Shown here: positions 1-9,967 of the stretch, piece by piece
How positions within the stretch are numbered: the stretch's first letter is position 1
Layout: each line of letters opens with the position of its first letter
NCBI GenBank assembly: GCA_944332475.1
Contig: CALVKA010000003.1
Span: 163,257 to 227,256, forward strand
Source of the DNA: an uncultured Bacilli bacterium
GTDB taxonomy: Bacteria > Bacillota_I > Bacilli_A > RF39 > UBA660
Length of the DNA: 64,000 nt
Direction: 5' to 3'
The notes under the pieces: generated by a model
Told to the model about the DNA's origin: nothing
Database searches by the model: none
What the model saw: the letters and a program-made list of their open reading frames with translations, nothing else
Made by a program: the position numbers and the translations under genes

Positions 1-2688
1 TATTTCTTTATCTTCCATATTAGTATCATGATACTTTTTAACTAATCCCAAAATGTAATCAATATTTACATCTATAGATTTAATTAATTCCATTTCAAAT
101 ACAACATCTTCAGAAACATCTGTTTTTTCTCTTTTTGTCTTATTTCTAAAGTCATTATATATTTCAATATAAAGGCTTTGGTAATCTTGTCTATCTCTTT
201 CTGATAACAATTGTTCATCTTTAAATTCATCAAATGAAGATAAAATATTAGTAACCTTTAGTATTGCACCATATAATTTAATAAATTCTTTTTGTGCTTG
301 CTCACCCTGCATTAATTCTCCAGGTACAAATTTGGATGTTAACTTTTCCACTAATTCTTTATATCCTTCAAATCTTTTACCATTTTCTTCTTCATATCCA
401 TAATAATAATCTTTATATGGTTTTAATAAGACTACACCATGTGCATTTTCATCGCCAAATTTAGCAAGGGCTTCGTTTAATCTATCTTCAAGATTTCTAA
501 ACGATACAATATTACCATAAGTTTTTACACTATTTAATATTCTATTGGTACGAGAAAAAGCTTGTATTAAACCATGCCATTTTAAATTTTTATCAACCCA
601 TAATGTATTTAATGCTTTAGCATCAAATCCAGTTAAAAACATATTAGCAACAATTAATATATCGATTTCTCTATTTTTCATTCTTAATGATACATCTTTA
701 TAATAATTTTGAAATTTTTCTGAAGATGTATCATAACTTGTTCCAAACATTTTATTATAATCTTTAATCGCGTTATCTAAGAAAGTTCTATCATCAATAC
801 TTAAATTTTCTGTTGATTCTGAATTTTCATCAATTACACCATCTTCGTTATTTACACCATAGGAATAAATAATTACAACTTTTAAATTACTATTATTCAA
901 GTCTTGTACTTTTTTAAACTCAGTATAATATTCTTTGGCCATCTTAATACTTGAAACAGCAAATATAGAATTAAAGCCATTTATATTCTTTTTGGTCTTA
1001 ATTTCTTCTGTGCTTTGCTTTTTAGCAACATCAACAACATTATCTAATGTAGAATAAACATAAGATTCATTTGTCTTTGTTTTAGTGCTAAAATGCTCAA
1101 TAATATAATTGGTGATTAGATTAATTCTAATTTTATTATCAAATAATTTTTCTTCATCAATATTATAAACTTTTTCATCTTTTATATCATCTCTAATGTC
1201 AACTCTACCAACATATTCATATCTAAAAGGCAAGACATTTTTATCAGCAATGGCATTTACAATTGTATAAGTATGCAATCTCTCTCCAAATACTTGTTCT
1301 GTTGTTTCAGATATTCCTTTAATAGTTCTAGCATTTTCTGGAAATATTGGAGTACCAGTGAATCCGAAAATATAATATTTTTTGAATTTTTTTATAATTG
1401 ATTTATGCATCTCTCCAAATTGGGATCTGTGACATTCATCAAATATAAATACTACATGCTTATTAAACACTTCACTTTCTGTGTTCTTTTTAATAAAAGT
1501 TGATAGCTTTTGAATAGTTGTGATAATGATTTTAGCATTATCATCATACAATTGATTTTCTAATACTTTTGTCGATGTATTTGAATTAGCTGCACCTTCT
1601 TTGAATTTATCATATTCTTTCATTGTTTGATAATCTAAATCTTTTCTATCTACAACGAATAATACTTTATCTATATATGAAAGATTACTAGTTAGTTGTG
1701 ACGTTTTAAAAGATGTTAAGGTTTTTCCTGAACCTGTTGTATGCCAGATATACCCTCCTGCTTTAATAGATCCATAAAGTTTATTATTGTAAGCGATATT
1801 AATTTTATTTAATATCTTTTCTGTTGCGACTATTTGATATGGTCTCATTACAAGTAATTCTTCTTCACTAGTAAAAACACAATATTTTGTTAAAACATTT
1901 AATAAAGTGTGTTTTGTTAAAAATGTCTTAGCAAAGTCAATTAGGTCAGTAATTCCTTTGTTTTTTTGATCTGCCCAATAAGATGTAAATTCAAATGAGT
2001 TAGATTTTCTTTTTATTTTATTATTTATATGAAATTCTCTTGTAGTATTAGAATAATATTTTGTTAGTGTTCCGTTAGAAATAATAAATATTTGTATAAA
2101 GTTATAAAGACCACTTCCGGCCCAGAAAGAATCTCTTTGATATCTTTCTATTTGATTAAATGCCTCTCTTAAATCTACGCCCCTTTTCTTTAATTCAATA
2201 TGCACTAATGGAAGTCCATTTACTAAAATAGTAACATCATACCTGTTATCATAATTACCATCATTATTAACATATTGATTAATAACTTGTAATCTGTTGT
2301 TATGAATATTATTCTTATCAATTAAGTATATATTTCTTTTTTCACCAGAATCTAAAGTTATTTCTTGTTTGTAATCTTCTTGTATTAATCTAGTTTTTTC
2401 TATTATATAATCATTTTTATTAGCAATAACTTTACTGAGGAAAAAATCCCATTCTCCATCTGTAAATTGATAATTATTAAGTTTTTCTAATTGATTTCTT
2501 AGATTTAGAATTAATTCATTTTCACTATGAATTGATAAGTATTCATATCCCTCTTCTACTAACGTATTAATCAATTCTTTTTCTAAAGCAGATTCACTTT
2601 GAAATGATGTTACTACTCTATCTAATGGTTTGTATTCTGCAAGCACTGTCGAATTATCATTTTCACTAATTAAACCTATATTATTCAT
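1..2688 (-). CDS. hsdR: Type I restriction enzyme R subunit HsdR (N-terminal ~895 codons; C-terminus runs off the left window edge)
   Basis: Own translation from ATG at 2686-2688 (minus strand) gives MNNIGLISENDNSTVLAEYKPLDRV..., with Walker A HTTGSGKT and DEAH-type box FDECHRSQ, typical of HsdR. No complete ORF is listed in the ORF track for 1-2688, consistent with one long ORF open at the edge. Start overlaps the stop of the upstream 148-aa ORF (ATGA). Confidence 0.85.
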   Translation of the reverse strand, partial: MNNIGLISENDNSTVLAEYKPLDRVVTSFQSESALEKELINTLVEEGYEYLSIHSENELILNLRNQLEKLNNYQFTDGEWDFFLSKVIANKNDYIIEKTRLIQEDYKQEITLDSGEKRNIYLIDKNNIHNNRLQVINQYVNNDGNYDNRYDVTILVNGLPLVHIELKKRGVDLREAFNQIERYQRDSFWAGSGLYNFIQIFIISNGTLTKYYSNTTREFHINNKIKRKSNSFEFTSYWADQKNKGITDLIDFAKTFLTKHTLLNVLTKYCVFTSEEELLVMRPYQIVATEKILNKINIAYNNKLYGSIKAGGYIWHTTGSGKTLTSFKTSQLTSNLSYIDKVLFVVDRKDLDYQTMKEYDKFKEGAANSNTSTKVLENQLYDDNAKIIITTIQKLSTFIKKNTESEVFNKHVVFIFDECHRSQFGEMHKSIIKKFKKYYIFGFTGTPIFPENARTIKGISETTEQVFGERLHTYTIVNAIADKNVLPFRYEYVGRVDIRDDIKDEKVYNIDEEKLFDNKIRINLITNYIIEHFSTKTKTNESYVYSTLDNVVDVAKKQSTEEIKTKKNINGFNSIFAVSSIKMAKEYYTEFKKVQDLNNSNLKVVIIYSYGVNNEDGVIDENSESTENLSIDDRTFLDNAIKDYNKMFGTSYDTSSEKFQNYYKDVSLRMKNREIDILIVANMFLTGFDAKALNTLWVDKNLKWHGLIQAFSRTNRILNSVKTYGNIVSFRNLEDRLNEALAKFGDENAHGVVLLKPYKDYYYGYEEENGKRFEGYKELVEKLTSKFVPGELMQGEQAQKEFIKLYGAILKVTNILSSFDEFKDEQLLSERDRQDYQSLYIEIYNDFRNKTKREKTDVSEDVVFEMELIKSIDVNIDYILGLVKKYHDTNMEDKEI

Positions 2689-3131
2689 TTTCTTTCACCA
2701 ACAATCTTTTTAATTTCATTTAATATTAAATCCATTCTTTTACCATCTAGCACTTTAGCGTACCAATTATAGTTACGGATATCCTTTAATTCTTTTAAAT
2801 AGTCTGCATTTCTAAAAACCACTACATCACCTAAAGGAACTGGTAATATAAATTCTAAAGTTGGGCCATATTCTAACATTTTTAAATCTGTGTAATCTTG
2901 TTTCATTTCAGTGCAATGTTTAAATGCATTATTAAAGGCTATACATGCATTCTTCAACTCGTCTTCTTTAGTTTTAGGATCTTTTATAAAATTATTAAAC
3001 AGTGCTCCTAATTGGCTGAAGGTATTAGCTGTTTTTCTATATAATGTTAATTCATCAAAATTGCATTTATTTACATATTCTGTTAAATCACTTAATTCTT
3101 TCCTTGCACTTTCTAATAATAATCTATTCAT
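2685..3131 (-). CDS. hypothetical 148-aa protein inserted between the prrC-like gene and hsdR
   Basis: Complete ORF in track; translationally coupled on both sides (2-nt gap upstream, ATGA overlap with hsdR). No recognisable motif. Confidence 0.5.
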   Translation of the reverse strand: MNRLLLESARKELSDLTEYVNKCNFDELTLYRKTANTFSQLGALFNNFIKDPKTKEDELKNACIAFNNAFKHCTEMKQDYTDLKMLEYGPTLEFILPVPLGDVVVFRNADYLKELKDIRNYNWYAKVLDGKRMDLILNEIKKIVGERK

Positions 3132-4221
3132 CTTTTACCTCCATTTTATAATAATTTATAAAATCCATAAATCCTTCTATAAATATTGTTTTTTCATTAC
3201 TTGTCAGCTCAAAATATTCAAACTCTGGCAAATTACCATGGCTATATAAATTGATTAATTTAATTAATTCTTTAGTATATTCTTTCTGTGGTAAACAATC
3301 TTCATATTTTTTATAGCCAAAATAATTTGCTGTCTTTTCTAATAAAATCCTAAACATATTAAAATTTATCTTTTCTAAACTATCATTATTGATAGCTTCA
3401 TTTATTTTTTTTACTAAAATTAAATGATATCCAAAAGGAGAATCACCCTTTTCTTCAAGACAATATTTGTATTTATTTTTTATTAAGACATAGGAATTAA
3501 ATTTAATATAGTTCTCTCTTTTTAGTAAATTGTAAATTGCATTATAAAATAATGCATGATGTGTTGTAATTAAAATACTGGGTCTATCTTCTTCTGTTAA
3601 TTCATTTATCCTTTCAATCAGCTCATATATTTTAACGGCTATATTCATTATTCTTATATCATCAATAGAAGATACAGGGTCATCAATTACAATATATTTA
3701 ATATTGTCAAAAATATCAGTTGATCTATTTTCTTTTTCTTCTTTTAGTTCGTAAATCATGGAATCTATAAATGTGTAAAATATACTCCATATAAAAAGAC
3801 TTTCTTCTGCTTTTGAAATTTTAATATCATAATCATATCCATCTTTAGTTTTAGCACTGAACTCTATTATACCACTTTCTAAATCCATTGATGGTTCAAT
3901 AATATCATCGCAAAATAACTTGAAGTTATCTTCAATTGCTTTTTCTAATCCCTGTTCAGTTATGAACTTAACTATCCAAGAAATGCTATTAATATTCAAA
4001 AATTGCGAATCATTTACCCAGGAAAATTCATCTTGAAATATCGAATTAAAACATAAAACTTTATCTTCCTGTTTCTCCGTAAACATTCTAGAAATTCTTG
4101 TTTTTCCGGTTCCATTGAAAGCATATATCAGATCAACTTTTATTTTTGTACTGAGACTATTAAAATCTTTATTAATTTCATTATATATTTGCTCTATATC
4201 TTCACTTTCTACTTTCTTCAT
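3124..4221 (-). CDS. prrC: PrrC-like anticodon nuclease (ABC-type ATPase N-domain plus C-terminal ACNase domain)
   Basis: Walker A AFNGTGKTRIS near the N-terminus. ABC-like Walker B/D-loop YIVIDDPVSSIDD. C-terminal R-x32-N-x3-H arrangement (MFRILLEK...LINLYSHGN) with a ~37-aa tail, mirroring the Arg320/Asn352/His356 arrangement of E. coli PrrC. Located between hsdS and hsdR exactly as in the E. coli prr locus. Confidence 0.6.
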   Translation of the reverse strand: MKKVESEDIEQIYNEINKDFNSLSTKIKVDLIYAFNGTGKTRISRMFTEKQEDKVLCFNSIFQDEFSWVNDSQFLNINSISWIVKFITEQGLEKAIEDNFKLFCDDIIEPSMDLESGIIEFSAKTKDGYDYDIKISKAEESLFIWSIFYTFIDSMIYELKEEKENRSTDIFDNIKYIVIDDPVSSIDDIRIMNIAVKIYELIERINELTEEDRPSILITTHHALFYNAIYNLLKRENYIKFNSYVLIKNKYKYCLEEKGDSPFGYHLILVKKINEAINNDSLEKINFNMFRILLEKTANYFGYKKYEDCLPQKEYTKELIKLINLYSHGNLPEFEYFELTSNEKTIFIEGFMDFINYYKMEVKDE

Positions 4222-4806: not shown

Positions 4807-5989
<1,183 letters not shown>

Positions 5990-6006
<17 letters not shown>

Positions 6007-7564
6007 CCTCTAATTCTCTGATTATCTCTTCTAGTTCTTTTCTTAGTTGTTCTTGTCTAGGAACTATTTCTGCCAATCTTTTGTTTACTTCTTTTATATC
6101 TATTTTTTTCTCATTTAAATTAGTCTTTAAATAAGAGTTTACAGAAATATTATAGTCATTTTCTTTTACTTCTTCATAGGTTGCTAGATAAGATTTATTC
6201 TCTACTTCTTTTCTTTCTTTTAATAAATTAATAATATTATTAATATTTTCATCTGATAGCTTATTTTTATTTGTATTTCTGACAAATTCAGTTGAGGCAT
6301 CTACAAATAGAATATTATTATCAGTTTTATTTTTCTTTAGGATTAAAATGCAAGTAGCAATAGTGGTTCCAAAAAATAAATCTGGTGGTAATTGAATAAC
6401 TGTATCTACATAGTTATTATCAATCATATACTTTCTTATTTTTTGTTCTGCTCCACCTCTATATAGTACTCCAGGAAATTCAACTATTGCAGCTGTTCCT
6501 TTTGGAGAAAGCCATGATAACATATGCATTGTAAATGCTAAATCTGCTTTAGAGGAAGGTGCTAATACTCCTGCTGGTGAAAATCTTTCATCATTTATTA
6601 ATAATGGATTTTCTTTTCCAGCCCAGTGAATTGAATATGGAGGATTAGATACTATTGCATCAAAAGGTTCATCATCCCAGTGTTGTGGATGAATTAATGT
6701 ATCTCCCCTTGCTATATTAAAATTATTATAATTTATATTATGTAAAAACATATTTATTCTAGCTAAGTTATATGTTGTTAAATTTATTTCTTGTCCAAAG
6801 AATCCTTGTTTAACATTTTCTTTTCCTAATATCTTAGCAAACTTTAACAATAAACCTCCTGATCCACATGCTGGATCATATACTTTATTAACTGAGGTTT
6901 TATCCATAATAACAATTCTAGCAAGTAATTCTCCTACTTCTTGGGGAGTAAAGAATTCGCCTCCCGATTTACCTGCAGAAGATGCATACATTGTCATCAA
7001 AAATTCATAAGCATCTCCAAATAAATCTATATTATTATCTTGGTAATCTCCTAATTTTAAATCACCAATAGCATTAAGCATCTTAACTAATTTTTGATTT
7101 CTTTCATCTACTGTATTTCCTAATTTATTATCTATTGTAAAATCGTCAAATAAACCTTTTACATCATTCTCTGATGCTGTTCCTCTAGCAGATGCTTCAA
7201 TGTTATTAAAGACATTTGAAATTGTTACATTTAAATTTTCATTTTGGTCAGCATTTTTTCGGATATTGCAAAATAATTCACTTGGTAAAATGAAGAATCC
7301 TTTTTCTTCTAGTATTTGCAGCTTTCCCATTATTGCTTCTTCATCAGTTATATTTCTATATTCAAAATTAGAAATACCTGCTTTTCTTTGATTTTCATTA
7401 ACATAGTGTTCTATATTTTCAGAAATAAATCTATAGAATAATAATCCTAATACATATTGTTTAAAGTCCCATCCATCTACAGCTCCTCTTAATTCATTTG
7501 CTATTTTCCATATAGTTTTATGTACTTCTTCACGTTCTTGTTCTTTTTTGTTACTCATTTTCAC
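5990..7564 (-). CDS. hsdM: Type I R-M N6-adenine DNA methyltransferase subunit HsdM
   Basis: 524 aa with the NPPYS catalytic motif and an HsdM-typical N-terminus. RBS GAGGTG upstream. Confidence 0.9.
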
Positions 7565-7592: not shown

Positions 7593-8279
7593 TTATCTTC
7601 CAAGTATATCCCAGGCTGTAAGAATACCTATAACTTTTTCTTCTTTACCATTTTCTGTAACTAAAACACATGATAACTTACTTCCTTTTTTAAATTCATT
7701 AATAAATTCTAAACAAATATCATCATACAATCTATTTCTACTTGCAAATTTTATGATTTCTTTTGATTTGTTAAAACTTATAAAGTCTTTAATGTCCTTA
7801 AACAATGTATTTTCATCTATTTCTACAATTTTATTTTCATATAAATAATTAAATAATACCCCTTCACTAAAAATTCCTACTAATTTATTGTTGTCATAAA
7901 TTGGAATGTGAGTATAATTATTTTCCATCATCTTTTTCATTTTTTCTCTAACATTATCATTTAAATTAGCAGCATAAACGTTTTTGGTTGACTTATCATA
8001 AACTTTAAATGGATGCTTTATTTCTTCGATAATTCCATCTAATTTTTTTATCATATCTTCTCCATAAAAAATGAATTCATTTTCATAACTATTATGTGCT
8101 ATCCTATTTCTACACACTCTGCAAAAATCAATAAAGTCATATTGTGAGTAATAAGGTTCTCTATGTTTATTTTTTAATTCTTTAATCTTTTCTATTAATT
8201 TTTCATCCTTGTTTTCTTCATTTATTGTAAGTTTTTCAAATTCTAAAAATTTTCTTCTAAAAATTTCTGTGTTTTCCAT
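7593..8279 (-). CDS. HEPN-like (Rx4H) N-terminal domain fused to a tandem CBS-domain pair
   Basis: CRNRIAHN (R-x4-H) in the N-terminal ~110 aa. C-terminal ~120 aa has two CBS-like repeats (HIPIYDNNKLVGIFSEGVL... and SCVLVTENGKEEKVIGILTAWDIL). Lies 28 nt upstream of hsdM, same strand. Confidence 0.45.
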   Translation of the reverse strand: MENTEIFRRKFLEFEKLTINEENKDEKLIEKIKELKNKHREPYYSQYDFIDFCRVCRNRIAHNSYENEFIFYGEDMIKKLDGIIEEIKHPFKVYDKSTKNVYAANLNDNVREKMKKMMENNYTHIPIYDNNKLVGIFSEGVLFNYLYENKIVEIDENTLFKDIKDFISFNKSKEIIKFASRNRLYDDICLEFINEFKKGSKLSCVLVTENGKEEKVIGILTAWDILGR

Positions 8280-8308: not shown

Positions 8309-9139
8309 TTAAAATAATTCTTTCACAATTAAATCTTCTGAATGTAAATTATTATTTTTACCTAATAACAAATTCTCATAAAATTTAATTAAATAAATTT
8401 TATCCTCTTTTATATTTAAGTAATTATTGAAATAATTACTTCTTACTAGTGCATTTCTAAAATATACTGATTTATCTTTAAATAATGAGTTATCTGCTTT
8501 GTATCCAAGGCTAGTTAAATATTTTTCTATGAATACTGCTGTTGTTCTAGTGTTACCTTCTCTAAAGGGATGTACTTGCCAGATATTAGATGTAAAATCA
8601 GTAATATTTTTAATGACTTCTACAATATTCATATTTTTGTAGTCTTTCTCTTTTTCTAGACTAATATCATATTCTAATGATTCTGTTAATGTTTTAGAAT
8701 CTCCATAAGCAACTGAATCATTATTTAATATTTTTTCATGTTTCGAAAAATCTATTTTTCTAAACTCTCCTGCAAATTCATAAACATCTTGAAATAAATA
8801 TTTATGAATATATTTTAGATAATCTACTGATAATTCAAAATTATCTTGATTTAATAATTCAACAATTCTCATAGATACAAAATCACATTCTAATTCATTA
8901 TGATTAATATTCTTTTCTTTTGTGGTGTAATATTCTTTTAGACTTTGTTCTACTTCTTTTAGTGTTAATTCACCTAAGATATTTTTTTCTTTTAGTTGTT
9001 CTAAGTATTTAGATGGTTTTAAATTATCTACTTGTTGTAATCCTATAGCCATATCCCATTGTAACTGTTTTACATATCCTTTGGGATATGTTTTTTCTTG
9101 ATATGGATTTAGGCTGGAATCTAGTTCTTTTTCGCTCAT
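8309..9139 (-). CDS. Fic/Doc family protein (degenerate Fic motif HPFREGNTRTT)
   Basis: Fic core motif HxFx(D/E)GN(G/T)R present as HPFREGNTR; 276 aa. Confidence 0.75.
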   Translation of the reverse strand: MSEKELDSSLNPYQEKTYPKGYVKQLQWDMAIGLQQVDNLKPSKYLEQLKEKNILGELTLKEVEQSLKEYYTTKEKNINHNELECDFVSMRIVELLNQDNFELSVDYLKYIHKYLFQDVYEFAGEFRKIDFSKHEKILNNDSVAYGDSKTLTESLEYDISLEKEKDYKNMNIVEVIKNITDFTSNIWQVHPFREGNTRTTAVFIEKYLTSLGYKADNSLFKDKSVYFRNALVRSNYFNNYLNIKEDKIYLIKFYENLLLGKNNNLHSEDLIVKELF

Positions 9140-9229: not shown

Positions 9230-9967
9230 TTATTCTATATCTAAGTCTTCTTTATAATTTATACAATTATTTAAAATATTTAAAAGTTCTAATTTCAATT
9301 CACAATATTTATTTCTTTTTACATACCTTTTATCAATCTCCATTAGCATTTTATCAGTGTATTCATACAATATATAAATTAAATACGTTAAATTTTCCAT
9401 CCAAACAATTCTAGTTTTTGATAAATAATTATTATCATGAAGATATTCACTTAATGCTTCAAAATCATTATATATTTTTATATCTATTAATTTACATACA
9501 TCTTTAAAATTATAATTTTTTAATTTTACAGCATTTTTAATCCAACTATAAGGTCTTTGATCATCAAAACAATCACAAGAAATATTAAGAAAATCACATA
9601 ATCCTTCATAATCTTTTTTTATTCTGCTATGATATGGTTCGTTGCCGATTTTTTTCATAGCTTTGTATGCTCCATGTAAATACCAATATTTCCATATTTC
9701 TTTTTGTTTATATTTTTTTATTATATAAAAACAAACATAATTTTCAATCATAATTCGTAATTTACATGCTAAACCATTATAGTCTTCTATTAATATACAT
9801 GATAAAGCTTTTTGTAAATAGTCTAAATGTTTTTTTAAAAATAGGTTTTTTATGCCGTTATAGTCAGAAGTAATCATACAATACTCTCTTTTTGTCTGCT
9901 CAATATAATCAATATACTTTTTTAGTGCTTTTATTTCTTCTTTTTCTATATTGTAAATGTTATCCAA
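9230..9967 (-). CDS. hypothetical 245-aa protein (Cys-rich, no recognised domain)
   Basis: Complete ORF; first gene of the island next to tRNA-His. Confidence 0.5.
   Translation of the reverse strand: MDNIYNIEKEEIKALKKYIDYIEQTKREYCMITSDYNGIKNLFLKKHLDYLQKALSCILIEDYNGLACKLRIMIENYVCFYIIKKYKQKEIWKYWYLHGAYKAMKKIGNEPYHSRIKKDYEGLCDFLNISCDCFDDQRPYSWIKNAVKLKNYNFKDVCKLIDIKIYNDFEALSEYLHDNNYLSKTRIVWMENLTYLIYILYEYTDKMLMEIDKRYVKRNKYCELKLELLNILNNCINYKEDLDIE

Follow-up and report, generated by a model that had tools for sequence, protein, structure and literature searches.

A compact HEPN–CBS fusion protein carried with restriction systems is a candidate ligand-gated defence RNase

A 64,000-nucleotide stretch of DNA from an uncultured Bacilli bacterium (GenBank assembly GCA_944332475.1, contig CALVKA010000003.1, positions 163,257 to 227,256), referred to below as the window, contains a gene for a 228-residue protein directly in front of the hsdM methyltransferase gene of a Type I restriction operon. 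A first-pass annotation of the window had proposed that this protein, here called HEPN-CBS, joins a HEPN-like RNase domain to a pair of CBS repeats and could serve as a ligand-gated abortive-infection or regulatory effector. The gene is separated by 29 bp from an upstream Fic-domain gene and by 28 bp from hsdM downstream, all three on the minus strand. A scan of the window found no terminator-like hairpin on this strand between positions 9967 and 2685. A promoter scan was uninformative in this AT-rich DNA, returning 65 sites against 61.7 expected. The placement upstream of hsdM described in the first-pass annotation was therefore correct, and the claimed co-transcription is plausible: spacing, strand and the terminator scan are compatible with it but do not prove it.

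The AlphaFold 2 model of HEPN-CBS had a predicted local distance difference test score (pLDDT) of 87.8 and a predicted template-modelling score (pTM) of 0.80, the high pTM suggesting that the two domains pack rigidly in the model. Residues 1–92 are predicted to form an all-alpha, up-down helical bundle as in solved HEPN domains. The HEPN-like fold put forward earlier was thus recovered, although over about 92 residues instead of about 110. In HEPN RNase sites the arginine of an Rx4-6H motif is directly followed by a polar residue, N, D or H (PMC3710099), and R57-N58-x3-H62 has this form. It lies in the sole Rx4-6H stretch of the protein, C56-R57-N58-R59-I60-A61-H62-N63. By our own rough estimate, about 0.5 such stretches would be expected by chance in a protein of this size; a lone match is close to chance level, and the weight of the motif therefore comes from its conservation. 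R57, N58 and H62 were invariant in 31 homologues sharing 39–87% identity (alignment A1) and in 15 cross-phylum loci with identity down to 24% (alignment A3). Among 62 cluster representatives (alignment A5) H62 was invariant, while R57 and N58 were at least 90% conserved. This invariance spans Bacilli, Saccharibacteria, Bacteroidota, Chloroflexota and Gammaproteobacteria, so that the R/N/H motif within the CRNRIAHN signature singled out in the first-pass annotation is a family-wide feature; neither its conservation nor the predicted fold spoke against the original idea. E15 in helix 1, which is also at least 90% conserved, fits the upstream acidic residue described for HEPN domains (PMC3710099). 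A minimal HEPN domain is the most fitting interpretation of residues 1–92.

Profile searches, which had been suggested as a check of both domains, matched the CBS repeats but reached HEPN models below threshold only. DUF4145 was matched in this way by 6 of the 31 homologues and 1 of the 62 representatives. Six DUF4145 matches that we inspected (13.0–19.8 bits) had a single register, residues ~15–70 aligning with profile positions 22–75, i.e. from helix 1 to the RNxxxH helix. The other weak matches were to RiboL-PSP-HEPN in three members and to Csm6_HEPN, RNase 2-5A and ApeA in one member each, and the 62 relatives gave weak PADLOC matches to CARF_HEPN and Csm6. That the sub-threshold Pfam matches fall on HEPN families, and on little else, counts in favour of the HEPN reading. 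A search of an N-domain profile against all PDB chains returned chance matches only, such as cholera toxin B (E = 0.09). DUF6548 was also matched below threshold in three relatives (P0020, P0026 and P0029; best E among the 62 members, 6.9e-5). These matches cover the HEPN motif helix together with the first CBS motif (residues ~35–134 against positions 36–137 of 164 in the profile), and DUF6548 might be a related HEPN-CBS-like family.

The C-terminal part of the protein (residues 93–228) was matched by Pfam CBS and contains two tandem CBS motifs with the beta-alpha-beta-beta-alpha fold of a Bateman module, confirming the two CBS-like repeats reported earlier. T123-H-x-P126 and G135-x-F-S-E139 of the first motif are invariant in the family, and G218, T221, W223 and D224 of the second are invariant across phyla. 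The canonical ribose/phosphate-binding pattern of CBS domains is G-h-h-T/S-x-h-D/N, with which G218-I-L-T221-A-W223-D224 agrees.

A word-indexed search returned 57 homologues of the same architecture, nearly all of 228–237 residues. An exhaustive profile search with the N-terminal domain against 1.84 billion representatives found 85 clusters only, almost all of 220–250 residues with the domain at the N-terminus. As CBS was present in 60 of the 62 members scanned and protein length is nearly uniform, fusion to a CBS pair appears to be obligate for this HEPN lineage. The hosts are uncultured Bacilli, Erysipelotrichaceae, Clostridia, Lachnospiraceae, Bacteroidota, Anaerolineaceae, a Gammaproteobacterium and Saccharibacteria; a further member is carried on a Chlorohelix plasmid and bears the RefSeq name 'CBS domain-containing protein'. 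A phage origin is unlikely, with no full match in INPHARED and one locus in IMG/VR. PADLOC matched the window protein with PDC-S26 only (E = 0.024) and gave single weak matches across the 62 relatives, indicating that the family is not in PADLOC 2.0. No named family in Pfam, NCBIfam or PADLOC corresponds to it. Two loci labelled as metagenome-assembled genomes of different phyla, one of Muribaculaceae (L005) and one of Bacilli (L004), carry near-identical cassettes of HEPN-CBS and the Type IV restriction gene GmrSD (GmrSD 93% identical), the result either of a recent horizontal transfer or of faulty binning.

Roughly 16 independent genomic neighbourhoods of HEPN-CBS were counted. Searches by tblastn with the Hsd proteins of the window under-detected restriction neighbours; neighbouring genes were then annotated with Pfam and PADLOC. 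In the window and at P0009, P0014, P0050 and L006, which we grouped as three lineages, HEPN-CBS is part of a Type I operon. With X denoting HEPN-CBS, the window and its 81%-identical relative share the order Fic-X-hsdM-hsdS-prrC-orf148-hsdR, a 72% relative has X-hsdM-hsdS-hsdR-KAP NTPase, and 47–49% relatives have hsdR-X-hsdM, where X begins 7 bp after hsdR. GmrSD immediately adjoins HEPN-CBS in four contexts (L001, L004/L005/L021-26, L007 and L016). One of these (L001) also has a 1591-residue Type ISP enzyme directly downstream, and in the L004 cluster genes for a Type II methyltransferase and a ResIII+Eco57I enzyme follow. Elsewhere HEPN-CBS is preceded by an MmeI-type enzyme (L009), lies near an FtsK-HNH gene (L010) or NACHT NTPases (L011 and L012, the former with an SMC-like ATPase in addition), or is followed by an SRA-domain gene (P0022). 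No single neighbour is conserved across the contexts. From this mixture of Type I, GmrSD, ISP, MmeI, NACHT and HNH partners we conclude that HEPN-CBS goes broadly with restriction and defence islands and has no particular tie to SAM (S-adenosylmethionine)-dependent methyltransferases. The link to a SAM-using methyltransferase in the first-pass annotation thus held for the position before hsdM but not for its specificity, relatives being equally often beside GmrSD, Type ISP or MmeI.

Several HEPN-CBS islands carry serine recombinases, and chromosomal flanks differ between islands. One such recombinase lies just upstream of the Fic gene in the 81%-identical relatives, whose island again has different flanks. 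An open reading frame (ORF) of 86–100 codons was observed directly upstream of HEPN-CBS in the GmrSD-linked clade (L004 9685–9987, L005 64–366, L007 2899–3159 and L008 9724–10008). Its products share 57–83% identity and a YPFG[VI]CLKKK stretch, and weaker paralogues are present at L002 8301–8570 and L007 7310–7564. Pfam did not match it, and the window lacks a homologue. It was rejected as a general partner, being restricted to that clade.

The remaining genes of the window array are listed in Table 1. Identical gut-metagenome contigs hold the whole array, in which the complete HsdR has 1022 residues with HSDR_N, ResIII and EcoR124_C domains. The operon of the window contains two candidate HEPN RNases, HEPN-CBS and the PrrC-like protein, plus Fic. 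The 148-codon ORF that follows the prrC-like gene is conserved, overlaps both of its neighbours by a few bases and had no match in a Pfam scan. At the junction of the two hsdS ORFs TRF identified a perfect (GACA)n tetranucleotide tract (window 4815–4849), which recurs at L017 11434–11469, L018 11434–11465 and L031 10461–10524. With 8 units, as in the window and L018, HsdS is split into 399 or 396 residues plus 195 residues; with 9 units (L017, L019 and L020) it is a single protein of 599 residues. The 81%-identity relatives have 14–16 units. The pattern resembles phase variation of Type I specificity by a simple sequence repeat. A 245-codon ORF at 9230–9967 (minus strand) matched DUF5677 below threshold (E = 1.2e-3, 19.4 bits against 27.1), and a gene with a weak DUF5677 match is also found 3' of GmrSD in a distant HEPN-CBS island (L022 11370–12134).

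Table 1. Features of the HEPN-CBS locus in the window (positions from the first nucleotide of the window; the gene coordinates of HEPN-CBS include the stop codon)
Feature	Position	Strand	Basis or detail
HEPN-CBS gene, 228 aa	7593..8279	-	ORF list; ATG start
HEPN-like helical domain, residues 1-92	8004..8279	-	helices 3-19, 25-37, 47-61, 65-69, 74-88
Predicted catalytic motif R57-N58-R-I-A-H62 (Rx4H with polar N after R)	8094..8111	-	sequence
CBS motif 1, residues ~98-146	7842..7988	-	Pfam CBS best stretch 98-146
CBS motif 2, residues ~158-228	7596..7808	-	
G218-I-L-T221-A-W223-D224 within CBS motif 2	7608..7628	-	G218, T221, W223 and D224 invariant
hsdM, Type I methyltransferase	5990..7564	-	Pfam N6_Mtase 1.6e-113, HsdM_N 5.8e-19
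hsdS, first ORF, 399 aa	4807..6006	-	Pfam Methylase_S
hsdS, second, half-size ORF, 195 aa	4202..4789	-	
prrC-like anticodon-nuclease gene, inside the hsd operon	3124..4221	-	PADLOC PrrC 1e-83; Pfam AAA_13
148-aa ORF	2685..3131	-	ORF list
hsdR, 5' part; open frame of 898 aa that exits the left end of the window	1..2688	-	
Fic-domain gene, directly upstream of HEPN-CBS	8309..9139	-	Pfam Fic 1.5e-12; PADLOC PDC-S72 6e-81

The combination of HEPN and CBS domains has been described before. Anantharaman et al. reported HEPN+CBS fusions in 2013 and proposed that they couple nucleotide sensing to RNA degradation (PMC3710099). The examples, which we compared by description, are alr3009 and a Pelobacter protein (gi 118580987). 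Table 1 of that paper places 'CBS and HD (alr3009)' among 'other fusions' of a different HEPN group, not DUF4145; some of these proteins have an extra HD domain, and they were described as signalling proteins, not as embedded in restriction-modification loci. In 2026 a single-protein CBS+HEPN defence was validated (PMC13092281), DS-11 from DefensePredictor (WP_000257686.1, Escherichia coli), for which the NCBIfam model is NF053863 ('CBS domain-containing anti-phage protein'). It protects E. coli, and defence is abolished by Y157A in the CBS domain and by R330A and H335A in the HEPN domain; its authors concluded that the CBS domain regulates the nuclease via an adenine derivative, which they left unidentified (PMC13092281). 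With the 2013 listing and the validation of DS-11 the concept is already known. The earlier remark that the fusion belongs to no named defence family is consequently outdated for the architecture but stands for the present family, which is distinct from DS-11 and unnamed.

DS-11 and HEPN-CBS both combine a CBS pair and an RNxxxH HEPN domain in one polypeptide, both are found on mobile islands, and the presumed logic, an adenine-derivative sensor gating a dimeric HEPN RNase, is common to them. Their construction differs. DS-11 has 365 residues, with an N-terminal extension, the CBS pair at 134–241 and a C-terminal HEPN domain of the SAV2148 type (R330/H335), whereas the window protein is 137 residues shorter, lacks the extension and has HEPN (1–92) before the CBS pair (93–228). 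DS-11 also stands alone beside an integrase fragment, while the HEPN-CBS family sits in restriction loci. NF053863 scored 16.4 bits against the window protein, in the CBS part only, compared with a cut-off of 260, and BLASTP against DS-11 gave an E value of 1.1. By hhalign the CBS pair alone was aligned (E = 0.084, probability below 1%); with the HEPN part of DS-11 by itself, R57/N58/H62 paired with R330/N331/H335, which was not significant (E = 0.14). On these scores and the reversed domain order, membership of the DS-11 family was rejected.

PrrC is a nucleotide-sensing HEPN anticodon nuclease encoded in a Type I operon and unleashed when a phage disables restriction (PMC3710099). HEPN-CBS resembles PrrC and RloC in pairing a presumed nucleotide-sensing module with a HEPN RNase domain, in the location of its gene within a Type I hsd operon, even between hsd genes, and in the second-line role behind restriction that we propose for it. 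The sensor of PrrC and RloC, however, is an ABC-type NTPase N-terminal to HEPN, whereas HEPN-CBS has a C-terminal CBS pair and no P-loop domain. There is no sequence relationship between the two, and a genuine PrrC, recognized by its PADLOC model, co-exists in the window operon. The nearest Pfam family by sequence is DUF4145 (PF13643; e.g. RAZR/PD-T7-4), whose members are typically fused to or encoded with restriction-modification enzymes (PMC3710099). RAZR, whose HEPN domain is of the DUF4145 type, is active as a defence RNase and cuts RNA during abortive infection (RAZR paper). It differs from HEPN-CBS in having a zinc finger and no CBS pair, and in being activated by assembly on phage protein rings. 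HEPN-CBS is apparently an independent, mirror-image assembly of the two modules of DS-11 in a PrrC-like genomic position.

We assign a probability of roughly 60% to the interpretation that HEPN-CBS is a ligand-gated HEPN RNase acting as a second-line abortive-infection effector carried with restriction systems, and as far as computation goes this supports the first-pass reading. The analysis shows the gene, its CBS pair, a HEPN-like fold, a conserved motif, a constant fusion and recurrent placement in restriction loci; RNase activity, dimerisation, ligand gating, the nature of the ligand and of the RNA target, and a role in defence are inferred from these. The minimal HEPN domain would be a metal-independent endoribonuclease using R57, N58 and H62. 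As a rule HEPN RNases work as dimers that form a composite site (RAZR paper), and the active site of HEPN-CBS may likewise be completed across a dimer. Each HEPN domain would be packed on the C-terminal Bateman module, which is predicted to bind an adenosyl ligand. CBS pairs dimerise and change conformation upon binding such ligands. A change in ligand occupancy could therefore rearrange the Bateman dimer, alter the geometry of the HEPN dimer and so open or close its active site, acting as a switch for the RNase. The trigger may be a phage that escapes or disables restriction, or that disturbs the nucleotide pool; the RNase would then cut cellular RNA (tRNA, rRNA or mRNA) and translation would stop. 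The experimentally supported precedents of DS-11, RAZR and PrrC make a back-up RNase of this kind credible, and the variety of partner enzymes favours an autonomous sensor over release from a restriction complex. In a narrower form of the proposal the CBS pair would guard the cofactor pool of restriction, sensing SAM, its breakdown product methylthioadenosine, or ATP. It would fire the HEPN RNase once a phage anti-restriction enzyme that degrades SAM or depletes nucleotides has disabled the SAM/ATP-dependent restriction system next to it. That many partners (Type I, ISP and MmeI) are SAM-dependent is a hint in its favour, while the GmrSD-linked and restriction-free loci count against a strictly SAM-centred role, and we regard this form as rather improbable.

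Several results weigh against a ligand-gated defence RNase. No curated HEPN model matched significantly: for the window protein Pfam gave no DUF4145 or other HEPN match at E<=0.1, and the best HEPN-family match among relatives, DUF4145 in P0050 (E = 8.4e-4), scored 19.8 bits, below the gathering threshold of 23.1. Foldseek with the N-terminal domain against the PDB returned nothing below an E value of 7, and non-catalytic, MtlR-type HEPN domains score as high as toxins. The G135-x-F-S-E139 element of the first CBS motif lacks the canonical Asp at its last position, so that the pair has at most one canonical-looking ligand site. Homology to DS-11 by NCBIfam, BLASTP and hhalign did not go beyond the marginal CBS match. 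Finally, although restriction association recurred in the survey of neighbourhoods suggested by the first-pass annotation, about one third of the contexts (L002/3, L008, L013 and L014) had no recognisable defence gene.

The missing HEPN scores would be expected if HEPN-CBS were a housekeeping CBS protein that hitch-hikes on mobile islands, its N-terminal helices forming a dimerisation or adaptor element and Rx4H being structural. The public annotation, the absence of a HEPN model above threshold and the Foldseek result all agree with such a protein; we nevertheless consider it very unlikely. The protein might instead be a non-lethal regulator, i.e. a ligand-responsive RNase or RNA-binding protein that tunes expression of the restriction genes beside it; it might, for instance, hold back the nuclease when the genes enter a new host, or adjust restriction to how much ATP or SAM is available. 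The full R-N-x3-H signature is invariant, however, whereas part of the MtlR family has lost the motif (PMC3710099), and a dedicated regulator would not be expected beside such varied neighbours, several loci having no restriction gene at all. This makes a regulatory role distinctly unlikely.

Other explanations invoke a partner protein. As a variant of the favoured interpretation with a different trigger, HEPN-CBS could be held inactive in the manner of PrrC by HsdM/S/R or GmrSD and freed by a phage anti-restriction protein, the CBS pair only tuning its activity. Tight gene packing is consistent with this: HEPN-CBS lies between hsdR and hsdM with gaps of 7 to 45 bp (P0050/L006), directly before hsdM in three lineages, and 4–20 bp from GmrSD in L016 and L004, and PrrC itself provides a precedent (PMC3710099). 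The partner types (Type I, GmrSD, ISP and MmeI) are unrelated, however, which makes one specific protein–protein interface unlikely. Moreover, some loci have no restriction gene, DS-11 works alone, and the window operon already has PrrC. We therefore view a latent partner as a possible but unlikely explanation. A toxin-antitoxin-like pair, in which the Fic AMPylase would inactivate the HEPN RNase by modifying it, in the way that MNT antitoxins AMPylate HEPN toxins, is hardly credible. Fic is confined to the window lineage and the 81%-identical relative and is absent from the other contexts, and its product matches a stand-alone PADLOC candidate, PDC-S72. As the gene is not conserved it was rejected as a dedicated partner of HEPN-CBS, and it is probably a separate defence or toxin module.

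HEPN-CBS is an uncharacterised, compact and widespread candidate defence RNase, although after DS-11 it does not represent a new category. The family, very small and obligately two-domain, is spread over six or more bacterial lineages, among them Bacilli that are abundant in the gut, and is missed by current defence libraries (PADLOC, NCBIfam and Pfam). If our interpretation is correct, the principle of sensing a nucleotide with CBS and cutting RNA with HEPN arose two or more times, from different HEPN lineages and with the two domains in opposite order, and the HEPN-CBS version was wired into restriction loci in the manner of PrrC. Were the CBS pair to guard the restriction cofactor pool, restriction would be coupled to abortive infection at the level of a metabolite in a minimal 228-residue protein with an origin independent of both DS-11 and PrrC. 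The protein would be a compact system in which to ask what metabolite signals phage attack, a question that it has in common with DS-11, and could help to explain why restriction systems so frequently carry back-up suicide RNases.
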